Source: a virus. From it: 64,000 nucleotides of DNA. Both the position numbers and the translations under genes were made by a program. The notes beneath the pieces are model-generated. The model was not told where the DNA came from and did not search any database. It was given only the letters and a program-made list of their open reading frames with translations. Of this stretch, positions 45,415 through 52,493 are shown one piece after another. The stretch spans positions 81,036 to 145,035 of the IMG/VR virus record IMGVR_UViG_3300045988_171725; one strand, 5' to 3'. The first letter of the stretch is position 1. Every line of letters begins with the position of its first letter.

Positions 45415-46662
45415 ATGGTTTACGTAATTTCAAAAGAAAACAAACCTCTTATGCCCTGTTCTAATGTAATCGCAAGATTATTATTAAAACAAGGGAAAGC
45501 AAAAGTAAAAGGCAAACAACCGTTTACAATTAAATTGCTTTACGAAACAACTAATTATACTCAAGATTTAACGCTTGGGGTAGATACTGGCTCTGGAACA
45601 ATTGGCACAGCCGTTGCGACAGATAGCAGTAAAGTCGTTTATGTCTCTGAAGTGGTGGTTAGAAACGATATAACAAACAAAATGACACAACGTGCTAAAT
45701 ATCGCAGGAATAGAAGAAATAGAAAAACTCGTTACAGAAAAGAAAAGTTTCTTAATCGTAAGAACTCGATTAAAATTGATAGATTTAGCCCAACCATGGT
45801 AAGTAAATTGCATAGTCATGTTAAAGAAATCGAGTATATCAAATCTATTCTTCCTATAAAAACACTTGTTTTAGAAACTAGTCAATTCGATCCGCACCTT
45901 ATGCAAAATCCCGAACTAAAATATAAACCTTGGGGTTATCAAAAAGGTAAAAATTATGGTTTTGCAAATACTAAAGAAATGGTGTTGAGTCGTGATAATT
46001 ATACTTGTCAATATTGCAAAGGAAAACACAAAGACAGTAAACTTGAAGTTCATCATATAATTTATCGCAGCAATCACGGAAGTGACGATGAAAATAATCT
46101 TATAACTTTATGTCAAACTTGTCATAAATTGTTGCATAATGGAGAAATCAAATTAAACCTAAAGGGTAAATCCAAAGGAACACTAAAATATGCAACTCAG
46201 ATGAATTCCATAAGAAAACAATTGTTGAGAATTTATCCTGGGGCAATTGAAACATTCGGATTTGTTACAAAAGAGAATAGATTAAATATCAACGTTGATA
46301 AACACCATTATTTAGATGCTTGTGTAATTGCAACTGGCGGTAAAGAATTTCAAATATGTTGTAACATTTATAAGAAAAGATGTGTTTCTAAAGGTGATTT
46401 TCAGCAAACAAAAGGGGTTCGTTCTGAACAGAGATTGAACACAAAAAAGATTTGCGGGTTTAGAAAATTCGATAAAGTAAAATATTTCGGGAAAGAATAT
46501 TTTATCAAAGGAAGAATGTCGGCTGGGTATGCCGTTTTAATGGATATTGAAGGTAAAAAGATTAATTTTTCAGATATGCCAAAGGGACGCAAGTCGGTTA
46601 AGTTAAATAATTGTAAACGAATTTCAGCGAGAAAATCACAACTAATTACTCTTTATTCTTAA
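45415..46662 (+). CDS. iscB: IscB-like RNA-guided nuclease (copy 2, intact, 415 aa)
   Basis: AAGGAG RBS. PLMP N-terminus (VYVISKENKPLMPCSNVIARLLL). RuvC-I LGVDTGSGTIG, bridge RRNRRNRKTRYRKEKF, RuvC-II LVLETSQFD. HNH CQYCKG...VHHIIYRS...NNLITLCQTCH. RuvC-III HHYLDACV. Confidence 0.85.
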   Translation: MVYVISKENKPLMPCSNVIARLLLKQGKAKVKGKQPFTIKLLYETTNYTQDLTLGVDTGSGTIGTAVATDSSKVVYVSEVVVRNDITNKMTQRAKYRRNRRNRKTRYRKEKFLNRKNSIKIDRFSPTMVSKLHSHVKEIEYIKSILPIKTLVLETSQFDPHLMQNPELKYKPWGYQKGKNYGFANTKEMVLSRDNYTCQYCKGKHKDSKLEVHHIIYRSNHGSDDENNLITLCQTCHKLLHNGEIKLNLKGKSKGTLKYATQMNSIRKQLLRIYPGAIETFGFVTKENRLNINVDKHHYLDACVIATGGKEFQICCNIYKKRCVSKGDFQQTKGVRSEQRLNTKKICGFRKFDKVKYFGKEYFIKGRMSAGYAVLMDIEGKKINFSDMPKGRKSVKLNNCKRISARKSQLITLYS

Positions 46663-46774
46663 ATTTGTGAAGTTTAAATTTGACAAAATTATGTTATAAA
46701 AAAATAGAGAATTGATGTATAGCTAGCATCACACGCAGAGCTGGTCGTGCTCGACAAAAGAACCCAGCCCGTCA

Positions 46775-46851
46775 CGGGGTGTAGCGCAGCTTGATAGCGC
46801 GTTCGGTTTGGGGCCGAAAGGTCGGAAGTTTGAATCTTCTCACCCCGACCA
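46775..46851 (+). tRNA. tRNA-Pro (anticodon UGG), CCA encoded
   Basis: Hand-folded cloverleaf: acceptor CGGGGTG/CACCCCG, D stem GCGC/GCGC, anticodon arm TTCGG-TTTGGGG-CCGAA, T arm GGAAG-TTTGAAT-CTTCT, then A-CCA. 77 nt. Confidence 0.8.
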
Positions 46852-46858
46852 TCGCTGC

Positions 46859-46883
46859 GTCGGTTCGAACCCGACCAATGATT
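46859..46883 (+). other. Orphan tRNA 3' half (T arm plus 3' acceptor strand) with no matching 5' half
   Basis: GTCGG-TTCGAAC-CCGAC followed by CAATGAT. No complementary ATCATTG, D arm or anticodon arm upstream. Confidence 0.5.
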
Positions 46884-46918
46884 GCAGGGAACGGCAATTA
46901 TAGTGGATAGCGGCACGT

Positions 46919-46995
46919 GCACTCATCGCCTAAACGGAATAAGGCTTCGGATTTGTAACCCGAGGATGCGGAATCATACTCCGCTGAGTGCTCCA
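46919..46995 (+). tRNA. tRNA-Thr (anticodon UGU) with atypical T loop, CCA encoded
   Basis: Acceptor GCACTCA/TGAGTGC, D stem GCCT/AGGC, anticodon arm TCGGA-TTTGTAA-CCCGA (one A-C mismatch). T arm GCGGA-ATCATAC-TCCGC, then T-CCA. 77 nt. Confidence 0.6.
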
Positions 46996-47065
46996 GTGAG
47001 TTGTTGAATGTCAACATCATTCAGTCGATTGGAAATAATTTGGCGATTGTTTCCAAAATATTTTT

Positions 47066-47103
47066 AGAAACCGTGTTATTTTGCTTGACACGGTTTCTTT
47101 TTT
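47066..47103 (+). terminator. Rho-independent terminator after the tRNA cluster, overlapping promoter P9
   Basis: 10-bp perfect stem AGAAACCGTG (47066-47075) / CACGGTTTCT (47089-47098), then TTTTT. Confidence 0.8.
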
Positions 47104-47113
47104 GTGTTATAAT
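47085..47113 (+). promoter_or_regulatory. Sigma70-type promoter P9
   Basis: TTGACA at 47085-47090 and TATAAT at 47108-47113, 17-bp spacer, TG at 47105-47106. Confidence 0.7.
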
Positions 47114-47134
47114 AATCACATATAGGAGGTAGCT

Positions 47135-48037
47135 ATGGGAAATTTCATTTTAGTAATGGGTTTATCAGGAAGCGGAAAATCATATTGGACAAATAACGTT
47201 GCCGATGATGAGGGCATGGTCATTTTGTCGAGCGACGCGCTTCGGAAAGAATTTTACGGCGACGAAAATATTCAAGATAACCCCGCCTTTATATTCGAGC
47301 AAATGCGTATAAGAACGTTACAGGCGTTAAAAGAAGGTAAAAGCGTTACTTACGACGCGACTAACCTCAGCTCGAAGCGTCGTAAGGCGTTGTTGAAGCA
47401 ATTGCCCAAAGATGTTTATAAAATCTGTCATTGTATTATTACGCCCCTCGAAAAATGTATCGAGAACGATTCAAAAAGAGAAAGGCACGTTTCGGAGCGC
47501 GTAATTATGCGGCAGTTGGAGCAATTCGAGGTGCCGTGGTTTGATGAGGGTTGGGATACAATTTTCGTGATAAAACCATTTGGCGACGCCCCGTTAAAAG
47601 TCAATCTCAATGTAATGCACGATTGTTCGAAATATCACAAAAACGACACGATCAATAATCATATCGCAAGGGTTATACAAGCGGTCGCATTGAAGCCGAA
47701 TGTTGAAAAAGGCGATCGCGATGTTCTTCTCGAGGTAGCGTGGTTTCATGATATTGGGAAACCGTATACAAAAACCTTTTATGACAAAAAAGGAAAGCTC
47801 GGAGAAAACGCTCATTATTATAACCACGAAAACGTGGGTGCTTATTTATATATGGTTTCACATGTAGAAGGGGCGGCTTACGGAGATAGAGAAAATATGT
47901 ATAACGACCTTTTTCTCGCGTGGCTTATCAATAACCATATGATTATCTGGAATAATCAAAAAAGATATAATTCATTTAACGAACATATCAAACATTTACT
48001 TAAAATATTCGGCGAATGTGACAAGGAGGGTGCTTAA
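47135..48037 (+). CDS. Polynucleotide 5'-kinase (T4 Pnk-like P-loop) fused to an HD-domain phosphohydrolase
   Basis: GLSGSGKS Walker A. YDATNLSSKRR and NDSKRERHVSERV parallel T4 Pnk (SDTNLNPERR, RNSKRGTKAVP). C-terminal HD signature WFHDIGKP...HENVGAYL. Confidence 0.6.
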   Translation: MGNFILVMGLSGSGKSYWTNNVADDEGMVILSSDALRKEFYGDENIQDNPAFIFEQMRIRTLQALKEGKSVTYDATNLSSKRRKALLKQLPKDVYKICHCIITPLEKCIENDSKRERHVSERVIMRQLEQFEVPWFDEGWDTIFVIKPFGDAPLKVNLNVMHDCSKYHKNDTINNHIARVIQAVALKPNVEKGDRDVLLEVAWFHDIGKPYTKTFYDKKGKLGENAHYYNHENVGAYLYMVSHVEGAAYGDRENMYNDLFLAWLINNHMIIWNNQKRYNSFNEHIKHLLKIFGECDKEGA

Positions 48038-48039
48038 GG

Positions 48040-48924
48040 TTGTATATGGGATTTATTTATAAAATAACAAATTTAGTAAATAATAAAATTTATATAGGTC
48101 AAACCTCATTAACTATACGCAAGAGATGGGAAACGCATATAAAAAATGCAAAAGCGCATACTAATAGATATTTATATGATGCGATGAATCATTATGGTTA
48201 TAACAATTTTGTAATTGAACAAATAGAAGAATGTGCAAAAGAAGACCTCGATAATAGAGAAAAATATTGGATATCTTTTTATAATTCGACAGATCCCAAT
48301 ATAGGATATAATCTAACAGCAGGTGGCGGCGGTGGTAATACCTGGGTATTAAACCCACATAAAAGAGAGACTCTTGAGAAGTCTCGTATGACTAAAGCAA
48401 AAGAAAGCTATGTTCCAATAACAAAGGAATCTTTATTAGCTGATATTGAAAATAAATTAACTATAAAAGCAGTGTGTGAAAAATATCACTGTAATGGGCA
48501 AACAATTAAAGCATATTCAATGTTGTTTTTTGGTGAAATAATTTCTAAACTAAGAGTTGTTGAAAATAGTGGGGTTTTTAAAAAAAAAGAAGTTGATAAA
48601 AATCAATTGTATTCTGATATTATAGAAAATAAATTAAGCGTAAAAAATCTTGCTAAAAAATATAATATGGCTGCAAACACACTTAATAATAGATGTATAG
48701 AATTGTTTGGTGATACAATAATGAATTTACGTCAAAGAAAATATATAATTTTCAAAACTATTCAAGATGAAGAACGGTTAAAAGAAGAAACTTTATCTGG
48801 AAAGAAATTAGACGAAATTGCACATATTTTTAATATGTCAAAAAATACATTAGTTACAAGATTGAAAGAGATGTATAATATGAATTTTAAGGAGTATAGA
48901 AATTATGTTAAATCCAAAAACTAA
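48040..48924 (+). CDS. GIY-YIG homing endonuclease with three C-terminal HTH-like repeats
   Basis: GFIYKITNLVNNKIYIGQT...RKRWETH...REKYWI...GYNLTAGG. AT-rich. The start is TTG at 48040 or ATG at 48046. Confidence 0.75.
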   Translation: MYMGFIYKITNLVNNKIYIGQTSLTIRKRWETHIKNAKAHTNRYLYDAMNHYGYNNFVIEQIEECAKEDLDNREKYWISFYNSTDPNIGYNLTAGGGGGNTWVLNPHKRETLEKSRMTKAKESYVPITKESLLADIENKLTIKAVCEKYHCNGQTIKAYSMLFFGEIISKLRVVENSGVFKKKEVDKNQLYSDIIENKLSVKNLAKKYNMAANTLNNRCIELFGDTIMNLRQRKYIIFKTIQDEERLKEETLSGKKLDEIAHIFNMSKNTLVTRLKEMYNMNFKEYRNYVKSKN

Positions 48925-50136
48925 TCAACGGGAATTGGCTTATATAACGACAATACAAGAAATACGAGATCTTCCTGGATATGATAAAGTAGAATACGCA
49001 AGAGTAATCAATTGGTGGTGTGTTGTAAGAAAAGGCACTTACAAAGTAGGTGATTTATGCGTTTATTTTGAAATTGATTCAAAAGTGCCAGCAGAAAATC
49101 CCGTGTTTGATTTTATGTCTAAATATAAATACAGAATTAAAACACAGAAGCTCTGCAAAGTTTTATCACAGGGTTTAATTATGACGCTTGAAGAATTAGG
49201 ACTTAAAGATGTAAAAGAAGGGGAATTCTTAACAAAAAAACTCGGCGTTACATATTATGAAGCCGAAGATAATGTACGCAAAGCAAATAATAAAGAATTG
49301 ATTGCAATGAAGGTTGCAAAAAGAATGGAAGTATGGGGAAAGAAACACAAATTCCTTTCGCGATCCAAATTTTTCTGTAATCTACGTAAAAAACTTTTTG
49401 AAAAACAAATAAAAAAGGAGCCCAAAAGAAAAAGAAAACCAACTGGCCGTGTTGGGTAAAAAAGACGGATGAAGATAGATGCCAAAACTTACCCCAACTT
49501 TTCACGGAACCACTTAACGAGACGCATTGGATTGCGACGGAAAAAATCGACGGGACGTCAACAACTTTCACAATGCTTCAGGCGAAGAAAAGGAAAAGAC
49601 ACGCAATCATATGTTCTCGAAACGTCGTATTCGACACACCACAGGCAAATGAGAAGAATTATTATAAAGACACCGACGGGAATGTTTATGTCGAAATGTT
49701 TGAAAAATACGATATCAATGCGGTTTTAAACCACATTTTGGATAAACATCCTGAATATGAGTTTATAACAATTCAGGGCGAAACATATGGCGGGACAATA
49801 CAAAAACGAAGATATTGCAAAGAACACAGACTCGCAATCTTTAATGTCATCTTTAAAACAAAGAAGCTGGAACCGATTAGACTTAACCCGATTGAAATGT
49901 GCGATTTTGTTGGTCAAATAAACAAAGAACTGCAAACGGGAAATAAACTCGAATGCGTGCCGATAATATGCGAAGATTTCGTTTTACCGACGACGTGTGA
50001 AATGTTGCTTGCATACGCAGACGACGCGTCCGAAATTGACGGTGAAATGAGAGAAGGTCTCGTGTTCAGAAGTCGTGATGGTAAATTGAGTTTCAAAGCC
50101 GTTTCCAATAAATTCTTAGAAAAATACCACGGGTGA
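48905..50136 (+). CDS. RNA ligase (nucleotidyltransferase with KxDG motif) in two frames; needs a -1 shift at A_AAA_AAG (49411-49417)
   Basis: Frame A (48905-49459) encodes an N-terminal domain (GYDKVEYARVINWWCVVRKGTYKVGDLCVYFEIDS). Frame A-1 is open from 49402 and encodes WPCWVKKTDEDRCQN, then the motif I lysine in ATEKIDGTS and the rest of the enzyme. Confidence 0.6.
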
Positions 50137-50141
50137 ATCAA

Positions 50142-52493
50142 ATGGAAAACCAGGAAAACCAAAACAAAATTACGGGTTATTGCGTTCCGACGCGCTTAAT
50201 TTACCCGAAAGTCCCGATCGAAGAGTTCGTCCCAGGAAGTTGGGGGCTTCTCGAAGTCGATGTGGGGCAGATATTACAAGGGTCATTCCCAGCGGGATTC
50301 AGCAAAAATGGTTGGTTCCCGACGGTCGTGTTTAAAGGGGCACTCCCGCCGATCGACACTGAGAAAACGTATTACTTCGAGATCGAAATGGTCGCGGACG
50401 CAAAAAGCCCATATAAGGTCGGTTTTAACGTTTTGTTCATGACACAGAAAGTTCGCTTGACAAAGTTCGAAGAGCAGAAACTCTTCCTCGAAAGCATTTT
50501 GACCGAGCACCAAATCGACATTTTATACGAAGAACTCATCGATCCGTTCGAAGCAATCGACAGCGGGGATTTGTTCTTGCTTTCGACCGTAAAAGGGATT
50601 GGCGAGAAAACAGCAGAGAAGATTATCGAAACATATAACCGCACCAAAAAGGACGCGAACGCTTTCCTCGTTCTCCGAGAAGAGTTCGGATTAACCGACG
50701 CGGCGGTAACAAAGCTCCAACAGCGTTACCTCTCGACCGATACGATAATCGTGAAGCTTCGAGAAAACCCATATGAGTTGATGACCCTCGATGGTTACGG
50801 CTTCAAAAAGTGTGACGCGCTCGCGCTCAAAGGCGGAATGGCAAAAGACGCGAAATTCAGAATTCGCGCTTACGTTACGCATTTTCTGACCGAGCAAGCT
50901 GAGACGGAGGGGAATTCGTGGATTTATCTCCGCGACCTTTTGCACGGGGTCGTTGAGTTCGTGCCATCGATAAAGAAGGAAGTTTTCGCTGAATGGCTCA
51001 AAGAATGGACAGGAAGAATTGAATCAGACGAACCCGAATTCTTGTATTACGACGAAGAGCAAAAGCGGATCGGGTTGAAGCATTACCGCGAACTTGAAGA
51101 AAACATTACCGACGAAATTTTCAGGCTTCTCGACGCGCCGAAGAAAAACCTCTCGAAATGCCGTTACACAATCGAGGACGCGATAAGAGATTGCGAGGCG
51201 GATAATGGCTGGGAATATACCGACGAACAAAAGGCGGCAATTCGAGGATGTTTGGAAAATAATATTACGATAATAACAGCAAAAGCGGGAAGTGGTAAAA
51301 GTGCTTCGGTTCAACCTATTACTCGTTTCTGTCTTGCTAACGGTTTATTTGTTGCGCAAACAGCATTATCGGGAAGGGCGGCTTCAAATCTCTCTGAAAT
51401 TACAAACATTGAGGGGAAGACGATCCATCGTCTTTTGTGCTATAATCCAAAGGTTGGATTTACTCACAACAAAGAAAACCCTATTATAGAAGACATCGTA
51501 ATTATAGATGAAATGTCGATGAACGATAATGAGTTACTATACAATCTGTTACAAGCTATACCGAATGGCTGTAAAATTATAATGTTGGGCGATATTGCGC
51601 AATTACCATCTTTATCTGTAGGTTGTGCGTTTAAAGATTTAATAGAAACTAACGTTGTTCTATGTTACCGTTTAACTAAAATACACAGACAATCACAAAA
51701 ATCTGCTATCGTAACAGATTCAATTAAAATTTCCAATGGGATACAAATAATAAAAAAAGAACCAGTTTCGGAAATTCGTGGTGAATTACAAGATTTAAAA
51801 ATTGTCACATATAAAAATATAGATGAATCCCGTTCAAAATTTCTTAGAGAATATAAAACTTTATTAGATCGCGGGATTAGTTTTCAAGAAATCATCGGAG
51901 TCGTTCCTATGAAAAATAGAGGACCGATGTCTTGCTTGTCATTAAATAATGATATACAAAAATTTGTGAACCCAGATAAAGCTCTCCCCTTTATTAATTT
52001 GGCTGCAAATAAAACAGAATATTATGTTATAAAACTCGGTGACAGAGTTATTAACCGAAAAAATCATTATGACACAATTACTCTTGCTGAATATAATAAA
52101 AGCAAAAATATAAAAAGTAATAACGTAGAACCAATCTATAATGGGAATCTTGGAATTGTTACAGCTATAAAAGATGAATATATTGTAATCGACTTCAAAC
52201 AACAAGGTAAAATTGTGGTAAGGCGTGAATATTGGCAAGATATTATGCTGGGGTATGTAGTAACAGCCCATAGTTTTCAAGGTTCACAATCGCCTTATGT
52301 TGTTGTTGGTATAGATATGAGCGCATATATGCTTTTAAATAGAGAGTGGGAATATACAGCTATAACCAGAGCAAAAAAATATTGTGTTTTTGTAGGACAA
52401 ATTTCAGCAATTCAAAAAGCCACATCGATAAATAAGACTTATATAAGACAAAATTGGTTGAAGGAGTTATTAAATGAGAGAAATAGAGAGTAA
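50142..52493 (+). CDS. RecD-like SF1 DNA helicase (AAA_30/UvrD_C-type) with N-terminal HhH region
   Basis: GIGEKTAEKII (HhH), Walker A TAKAGSGKS, Walker B IVIIDEMSM, TAHSFQGSQSPYVVV, YTAITRAKKYCVFVG. Confidence 0.8.
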   Translation: MENQENQNKITGYCVPTRLIYPKVPIEEFVPGSWGLLEVDVGQILQGSFPAGFSKNGWFPTVVFKGALPPIDTEKTYYFEIEMVADAKSPYKVGFNVLFMTQKVRLTKFEEQKLFLESILTEHQIDILYEELIDPFEAIDSGDLFLLSTVKGIGEKTAEKIIETYNRTKKDANAFLVLREEFGLTDAAVTKLQQRYLSTDTIIVKLRENPYELMTLDGYGFKKCDALALKGGMAKDAKFRIRAYVTHFLTEQAETEGNSWIYLRDLLHGVVEFVPSIKKEVFAEWLKEWTGRIESDEPEFLYYDEEQKRIGLKHYRELEENITDEIFRLLDAPKKNLSKCRYTIEDAIRDCEADNGWEYTDEQKAAIRGCLENNITIITAKAGSGKSASVQPITRFCLANGLFVAQTALSGRAASNLSEITNIEGKTIHRLLCYNPKVGFTHNKENPIIEDIVIIDEMSMNDNELLYNLLQAIPNGCKIIMLGDIAQLPSLSVGCAFKDLIETNVVLCYRLTKIHRQSQKSAIVTDSIKISNGIQIIKKEPVSEIRGELQDLKIVTYKNIDESRSKFLREYKTLLDRGISFQEIIGVVPMKNRGPMSCLSLNNDIQKFVNPDKALPFINLAANKTEYYVIKLGDRVINRKNHYDTITLAEYNKSKNIKSNNVEPIYNGNLGIVTAIKDEYIVIDFKQQGKIVVRREYWQDIMLGYVVTAHSFQGSQSPYVVVGIDMSAYMLLNREWEYTAITRAKKYCVFVGQISAIQKATSINKTYIRQNWLKELLNERNRE

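Follow-up and report, generated by a model that had tools for sequence, protein, structure and literature searches.

Why does a phage RNA ligase gene change reading frame exactly at A_AAA_AAG, the classic bacterial slippery heptamer? This question is raised by a 64,000-nucleotide (nt) stretch of the IMG/VR virus record IMGVR_UViG_3300045988_171725 (positions 81,036 to 145,035; called here the window), in which the two domains of an Rnl5-type RNA ligase are encoded in different frames. The initial annotation of the locus offered two explanations: either a dnaX-type -1 frameshift is programmed there and two products result, or an A-rich run has acquired an indel. Comparison with related phages leads us to a more specific reading. 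The frame change is probably a non-programmed recombination lesion, a scar of homing and co-conversion found at one end of a mosaic patch that carries a predicted homing endonuclease gene.

The split of the ligase gene at an in-phase heptamer, with a -1 frame change, is borne out by the sequence and by the open frames on its two sides (Table 1). As claimed at the outset, frame 0 provides an N-terminal domain only: its open reading frame (ORF) of 184 amino acids (aa) is made up of the Rnl5 N-terminal OB domain, a Lys-rich linker and an out-of-frame tail of 14 codons. The frame-0 codons at the split are GAA AAA CAA ATA AAA AAG GAG CCC. The -1 frame, bounded by TGA at 49399-49401 upstream and by its stop codon at 50134-50136, is open throughout and reads ...WPCWVKKTDEDRCQN...ATEKIDGTS..., as had also been described. 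Its KxDG motif I lies at 49543-49554, with the motif I lysine codon at 49543-49545. Separate initiation of the catalytic domain was considered and ruled out. ATG, GTG and TTG codons were looked for in the -1 frame from 49402 to the motif I lysine, and none was found, so no separately made catalytic domain could keep its active site. By standard decoding, the 184-aa OB-domain fragment is the only predicted product.

A slip on the heptamer was expected to fuse a ligase of roughly 410 aa, and the conceptual -1 product is indeed 410 aa long. It matches PF21189 (OB domain) over residues 11-94 and PF09414 (RNA_ligase) over residues 208-400, and aligns almost end to end with phrog_968 'RNA ligase' (E 2e-63). 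Both domains also align with the Naegleria gruberi Rnl5 ligase (NgrRnl, 5cot; E 2e-31), up to residue 337 of 340, with KIDG facing the KLDG of motif I and EGLVFRS...K facing EGLVFKR...K. Rnl5 enzymes have an OB-like domain at the N terminus, then a nucleotidyltransferase domain with motifs I-V, and lack a C-terminal domain. This organization is found only in the conceptual fused product, and not in one polypeptide in the window, where the two domains are in different frames. The N domain of NgrRnl is needed for adenylylation and for overall sealing, and its removal cripples both (PMC4408790).

The split arrangement is not shared by homologous ligases. The fused protein was used as the query of a database search, which returned 6391 matches at E <= 1e-30. 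The best 120 of them were examined, and all have both domains in a single ORF of 394-418 aa, save two intein-bearing forms of 549 aa; these 120 include 12 clusters at 90-98% identity to the query. Among isolated phages, there are 149 records whose match covers 80% or more of the query, with every listed record in one piece. Their protein matches to the ligase have 27-32% identity and are in one piece among the matches listed, and a nucleotide search of the ligase region among 50,697 phage records gave no match. The ligase is also in one frame in five IMG/VR relatives (L001-L005; 63-85% identity), and the two-frame arrangement is confined to the window's own protein cluster. A programmed arrangement does not withstand this comparison of orthologues. 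A recurrent two-gene arrangement, which truncated N-terminal ORFs could have indicated, was rejected as well, those ORFs being explained by contig ends, chimeric joins, and indels or stops at varied positions and in varied directions.

Four homologues (P0008, P0028, P0046 and P0047) harbour an intein directly after a conserved KTDEER and before a Cys, at the equivalent of window ~49470-49480 (e.g. ...WVIKTDEER/CLAADTKVETDQG..., the stroke marking the insertion point). The 549-aa forms carry the intein-type domains PF07591 and PF14890.

We then compared the site itself in relatives from gut metagenomes. The window belongs to a contig of ~145 kb (L006), to which it is identical over 45905-52459. 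The relatives define a lineage A, endonuclease-bearing and typified by L018, and a lineage B, endonuclease-free and typified by L001. L018 came from a metagenome scan with an AT-rich 20-mer, which returned 49 loci, 48 of them chance matches; it was the only relative among them and proved decisive. In scans with the lineage-B junction 30-mer, L001 and L002 were the only viral contigs recovered, and genome contigs gave none. In lineage B, L001 and L002 read CAA ATA AAA GGA GCC CAA (IKGAQ) and L003 reads ATA AGA GGA, and the heptamer is absent from all three. In lineage A (L018, L068, L069, L070 and L007), the sequence is CAA ATA AAA AAG GGA CAG (IKKGQ), with the heptamer in phase; it is in phase also in a further lineage (L071-L073), which reads ATA AAA AAG GAT. 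These eight contigs with an identical in-phase heptamer read straight through it, and seven of the eight have intact ORFs of 409-410 aa. Heptamer present or not, none of the 13 related contigs read at the junction point has a frame change there, and the breaks in some short related contigs fall elsewhere in the linker. Thus, the heptamer and the two-frame arrangement are not conserved jointly in the orthologues. That a normally single gene is split here is a real feature and no chance pattern; the heptamer itself is not special.

Sliding identity profiles revealed that the window is a mosaic of the two lineages around the ligase gene. Left of 48037, it is 97.3% identical to L001 over 46753-48037, and 47540-48037 is 95.0% identical to L001 and 99.2% to L002, versus 85-87% to L018. 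The kinase/HD gene located there is accordingly on a lineage-B backbone (97.3% to L001 and 87% to L018). The next segment is of lineage A and includes the first 514 nt of the ligase gene, the 5' half inside this patch being only ~71-73% identical to L001-L003. From 49419 to ~51240, the window resembles L001 again, versus an identity of 89.8% to L018. Bases specific to lineage A extend to 49405 before the A run, those specific to lineage B begin at 49419, and the run of six As has the lineage-A length. The gap-free alignments to the two lineages abut at 49418/49419 and overlap in AAAAGG, a 6-mer that is 2 nt out of register between them. The context is ATAAAAAAGG followed by GACAGC in lineage A and ATAAAAGG followed by AGCCCA in lineage B, and the junction 25-mer of the window is AACAAATAAAAAAGGAGCCCAAAAG. 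At this point, the ligase gene has gained 2 nt against B and lost 1 nt against A. The frame change is therefore the junction itself. The indel proposed initially was close to the truth, but it is not a random slip in a homopolymer, since it coincides with the mosaic junction that ends the endonuclease patch.

The gene carried by the patch is predicted to code for a free-standing GIY-YIG homing endonuclease. It lies between two conserved genes, those of the kinase/HD protein and of the ligase, and at its 3' end it shares 20 nt with the start of the ligase gene; the protein also matches the SegE_GIY-YIG profile weakly, below the Pfam cutoff. L001-L003 are devoid of this gene, and their kinase stop and ligase start are 1 nt apart. 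Among the window, L018, L068, L069 and L070, the endonuclease gene has 99.0-99.9% DNA identity. In contrast, the flanks of the endonuclease-bearing contigs have 85-94% identity in the kinase gene and 89-97% in the ligase 3' half and the helicase gene. Sporadic presence, with an endonuclease gene and adjoining flank far more alike than the backbone, is the signature of the horizontal spread of a cassette.

A second recombinant of this kind was found in another sample of the same series. L068 carries the same patch on a backbone ~100% identical to that of L001. On the right, the patch of L068 ends in register at a shared CAAAAC (~window 49476-49481), ~60 nt downstream of the junction of the window, and its left junction is ~60 nt further left. 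The ligase of L068 is intact, with 409 aa (P0031, 98% identical to the fused query). The differing patch ends indicate that this type of event took place independently in the window and in L068, with a scarred outcome in the former and a clean one in the latter. L007 was considered as a second scarred recombinant and rejected: its 1-nt deletion (CAAAAC to CAAAC) falls within lineage-A sequence without coinciding exactly with a switch, and the L007 backbone is a mosaic of its own.

In three short contigs of other samples, L008 (~634), L009 (~2510) and L066 (~690), similarity to the ligase ends within ~15 nt, in alignment coordinates, of the window junction (49405-49419). The tails continue into unrelated sequence in L008, into the middle of a bacterial ispA-like gene in L009 and into the start of a DnaB-like gene in L066; compared with the sequences of this analysis, they gave no match. 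These ends could be assembly chimeras at an A-rich stretch, or they could mark a real hot spot of recombination or cleavage.

These observations suggest the following course of events. A lineage-B phage resembling L001 would have received a patch of ~1.38 kb from an L018-like lineage-A phage, comprising the predicted GIY-YIG endonuclease gene and the divergent 5' half of the ligase gene. In a co-infection, the endonuclease would have cut the endonuclease-free genome, and repair on the donor would have copied the endonuclease gene together with its flanks. Free-standing endonucleases of T4 (Seg and Mob) are known to cut away from their own gene, with resection and donor repair co-converting the flanks (PMC2988022, PMC2330249). 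The right end of the patch would have had to be resolved at the point of renewed A-B homology, in the Lys-rich linker that joins the OB domain to the nucleotidyltransferase domain. Resolution out of register in the 6-nt AAAAGG would then have broken the frame. The heptamer would have been carried in with the lineage-A sequence, in which it is an ordinary Ile-Lys-Lys coding sequence.

The exact 184-aa product is on record from JGI/IMG and from ENA, in contigs of 145186 and 145035 nt; the junction has therefore been recovered in more than one assembly. Together with the two-event variant considered below, a real lesion in the DNA is quite probable. Several points nevertheless weigh against the proposed scar. 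One possibility is that GGG was read as GG at the junction, an error of 1 nt. The activity and the target site of the endonuclease are predictions. An in-register crossover in CAAATAAAA followed by insertion of AA gives the same sequence. In addition, a -1 slip on the heptamer gives an exact in-frame A/B hybrid (IKKGAQKKKK), so that leaky function is plausible, and the nucleotidyltransferase part has no decay. In the ligase part of the lineage-B segment, all 11 differences from L001 are synonymous, which fits a gene still expressed equally well. Such exclusively synonymous differences are expected whether the lesion is recent or the gene is still in use. Most likely, the ligase gene of the window is a recent pseudogene, unless occasional, unprogrammed -1 slippage supplies some full-length enzyme.

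A programmed -1 frameshift of the dnaX type would have been selected to provide the OB-domain protein and the full-length ligase in a set ratio. The heptamer has the correct phase with respect to the ORF starting at 48905, as annotated, the 0-frame stop comes 14 codons on, the slip product would be a full-length Rnl5-type ligase, and the -1 frame is well preserved. However, a single frame runs through this point in the best 120 homologues and in all related loci for which the DNA was read, eight contigs contain the heptamer with no shift, lineage B lacks it, and the shift coincides with a recombination junction. High efficiency at dnaX requires an SD (Shine-Dalgarno) element as well as a hairpin whose positions are crucial, the hairpin being at the mRNA entrance of the ribosome (PMC5389563). 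An SD-like element was searched for upstream of the heptamer (CTTTTTGAAAAACAAAT), and none was found. The hairpin pointed out initially, CCAAC(N7)GTTGG, does exist, 21 nt downstream of the heptamer, but it is not a credible stimulator: it is no more stable than expected from shuffled sequence, with 37 of 200 shuffles folding at least as well. The best fold of 49418-49480 (z -0.83) and that of the 121-nt region (z +0.52) do not stand out from shuffled sequence either. The hairpin sequence is identical in L001 and L002, in which it encodes a conserved NWPCW with no frame change. Thus, the site has neither of the dnaX-type stimulators, which would be an SD-like element upstream and a stable hairpin or pseudoknot within a few nt downstream of the heptamer. 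Moreover, A AAA AAG is present with no programmed function in 68 genes of E. coli (PMC9307594), and the window itself contains AAAAAAG 51 times, seven of them in phase within long open frames. With single-ORF orthologues, unshifted heptamers in eight contigs and no stimulators, a programmed frameshift with two products is not supported, and we consider it highly improbable.

The other alternatives concern the way in which the frame change arose or whether it is there at all. If the frame change were a sequencing or assembly artefact, the true recombinant would be in frame (e.g. ATA AAA AAG GGA GCC, with three Gs), and a base would have been lost or contig ends mis-merged. One added G does restore the frame and gives the same protein as the slip product, metagenome assemblers break contigs at strain-variable junctions, and the record is a 'scaffold'. 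Breaks, indels and stops also affect the same linker in short low-coverage relatives (L007, L008, L009, L065, L066 and L067), and the L001 kinase gene has a frameshift with seven As for six. On the other hand, the identical 184-aa ORF comes from JGI/IMG and ENA contigs of differing size, and the 3.2 kb flanking the junction align to L018 and L001 with zero gaps, so the assembly is not generally indel-prone. The k-mers over both patch ends are unique to the recombinant molecule. Only 6-9 nt are common to A and B at these ends, too few for a de Bruijn path linking separate parents to have created the joins. An artefact therefore appears unlikely. An origin in two events, an in-register crossover in the shared CAAATAAAA plus replication slippage from four to six As in lineage-B sequence, would account for the fact that the window is the L001 sequence plus two As. 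Variants of A runs do occur elsewhere in the group (seven versus six As in the L001 kinase gene and in L065). Nevertheless, this route needs two changes within the same 10 nt where one out-of-register junction suffices, six As is exactly the lineage-A run length, and a two-base gain in a run of four As is less usual than a one-base change. We regard it as decidedly unlikely. Transcriptional slippage was rejected, a run of six As being too short for it. Finally, the scar might have become a frameshift site at birth, by landing on the inherited A_AAA_AAG, so that unprogrammed slippage of a few per cent would make the hybrid ligase (...EKQIKKGAQKKKK...). This is a doubtful proposal, to which we give a small chance; if it were true, the RNA-repair function would be kept, and the recombinant could persist. 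The single recombination scar is the explanation that we retain.

In the intact genes of L018, L068, L069, L070 and L071-L073, ATA AAA AAG is kept at the nucleotide level across two lineages that are ~76% identical in protein. In these genes, a -1 slip would lead to a stop ~35 codons on and to an OB-domain-only product, an arrangement that is formally dnaX-like. By analogy with dnaX, which gives gamma in this way, the in-phase heptamer of the intact lineage-A genes might yield a truncated OB-domain product. In the window, another A_AAA_AAG (GTA AAA AAG, where L001 has GTA AAG AAG) follows the first by 41 nt, at 49458-49464, and is in phase in the -1 catalytic frame, an example of how frequent the motif is in the Lys-rich linker.

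Table 1. Positions of the genes, frames, mosaic segments and sequence motifs of the split ligase locus in the window
Feature	Position	Strand	Evidence or remarks
Polynucleotide-kinase-like gene (P-loop kinase and HD domain, 300 aa)	47135..48037	+	Pfam AAA_33 E 4e-22, HD E 8e-5
Free-standing GIY-YIG homing endonuclease gene (predicted), 294 aa	48040..48924	+	Pfam GIY-YIG PF01541 E 3e-11, above cutoff
Frame-0 ORF of the ligase gene	48905..49459	+	ATG 48905, TAA 49457-49459, 184 aa; PF21189 E 2e-20
-1 frame, nucleotidyltransferase domain	49402..50136	+	PF09414 E 8e-15; aligns to NgrRnl residues 138-337
Kinase/HD gene segment	up to 48037		lineage B-like
Lineage-A patch: endonuclease gene and 5' 514 nt of ligase gene	48038..49418	.	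99.1% to L018 over 1381 nt, 0 gaps
Lineage-B segment: ligase 3' half and 5' part of RecD-like helicase gene	49419..51240	.	97.6% to L001 over 1822 nt, 0 gaps
AAAAGG microhomology, 6 nt; out-of-register meeting point of A and B segments, site of the frame change	49413..49418	+	alignments to L018/L001
A_AAA_AAG heptamer	49411..49417	+	frame-0 phase X_XXY_YYZ; inherited from lineage A (Ile-Lys-Lys)
5-bp hairpin CCAAC(N7)GTTGG	49439..49455	+	-6.2 kcal/mol, z -0.93; starts 21 nt after heptamer

The genes at this locus are found in the order kinase/HD, endonuclease, ligase and RecD-like helicase. By analogy with the T4 Pnkp/Rnl precedent cited in PMC4408790, the kinase/HD and ligase genes probably form an RNA-repair cassette. 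Three tRNA genes are located just upstream of it (43675-43748, 46775-46851 and 46919-46995). A 415-aa ORF with RRXRR and HNH domains (45415-46662) lies among the genes of tRNA-Gln(UUG), tRNA-Pro(UGG) and tRNA-Thr(UGU), and it may code for a second homing endonuclease. The region of this ORF and of the tRNA genes has only patchy similarity to L001-L003. On the other side, a second sharp mosaic boundary is found at ~51240, inside the helicase gene (50133-52493). Past it, identity to L001, L002 and L018 drops from ~97% to ~60% and stays low until ~52090, which indicates that the 3' half of the helicase gene derives from yet another lineage, as judged from these alignments. L007 is ~95-100% identical to L002, and not to the window, past this boundary.

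The cassettes of several relatives are disrupted in other ways. The L001 kinase gene has CAAAAAAAG (seven As) for CAAAAAAG at ~2919-2926 (window ~47957-47963), a frameshift that replaces the last ~25 residues; the left patch junction of L068 falls at this site. In L068, a TTG codon of the kinase gene is changed to TAG at ~153 (window ~47689). The ligase gene has a 1-nt deletion in L007, and an indel and stops are found in L065 and L067. These disruptions may be assembly noise, or they may reflect relaxed selection on an accessory RNA-repair cassette. In L067 (186-886), the otherwise well-conserved ligase is interrupted by two in-frame stops, ...FICT*RKK... and ...FTML*AHKK..., the second at a position where the relatives have Gln. 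They may result from errors or from decay, or may hint at a reassigned stop codon in this phage.

A programmed frameshift, if true, would have meant a new case of recoding, in an enzyme of RNA repair, but it is at odds with the comparative data. Rather, what the locus appears to show, in a clean and natural form, is how a free-standing homing endonuclease cassette passes between gut phages and drags half a neighbour gene along. The end of the copied tract would sometimes be left as a damaging scar, with the sister contig L068 showing the clean resolution. The locus also calls for caution in recoding screens: when a frame break in an A-rich, Lys-rich phage gene falls on a canonical slippery heptamer, this alone is no evidence of recoding.

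Compared with known systems, the locus shares with E. coli dnaX the same heptamer in the same phase and a 0 frame that ends soon after. However, an SD-like AGGGAG lies upstream at dnaX, where a strong hairpin sits at the mRNA entrance, and frameshifting falls sharply without these two signals (PMC5389563), whereas the window has neither. The two-frame arrangement of the window is not conserved, and the direction of the effect is reversed, as the dnaX shift truncates the protein and that of the window would complete it. The Rnl5 nick-sealing RNA ligases DraRnl and NgrRnl have the same succession of an N-terminal OB-like and a nucleotidyltransferase domain with no C-terminal appendage, and the KxDG and EGLVF-type motif V of NgrRnl align with those of the window. 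The phage proteins differ from them by a Lys-rich interdomain linker that is ~45 aa longer, and in the window by the different frames of the two domains.

The closest parallel is the intronless homing of the T-even SegA-G endonucleases, such as SegB and SegG. The event in the window differs from it in that one patch end is out of register, with the neighbouring gene broken, and in that the affected gene is an Rnl5-type RNA ligase of an uncultivated gut phage. The endonuclease of the window is, moreover, a predicted one, and its SegE_GIY-YIG match is below the Pfam cutoff. In T4 homing, the cleavage and insertion sites are separate and the flanks are co-converted (PMC2988022, PMC2330249). As in Seg homing, the GIY-YIG ORF of the window is inserted between two conserved genes and occurs sporadically among close relatives, the endonuclease gene and its adjoining stretch are nearly identical across diverged backbones, and the patch ends vary among recombinants, as seen with the window and L068.

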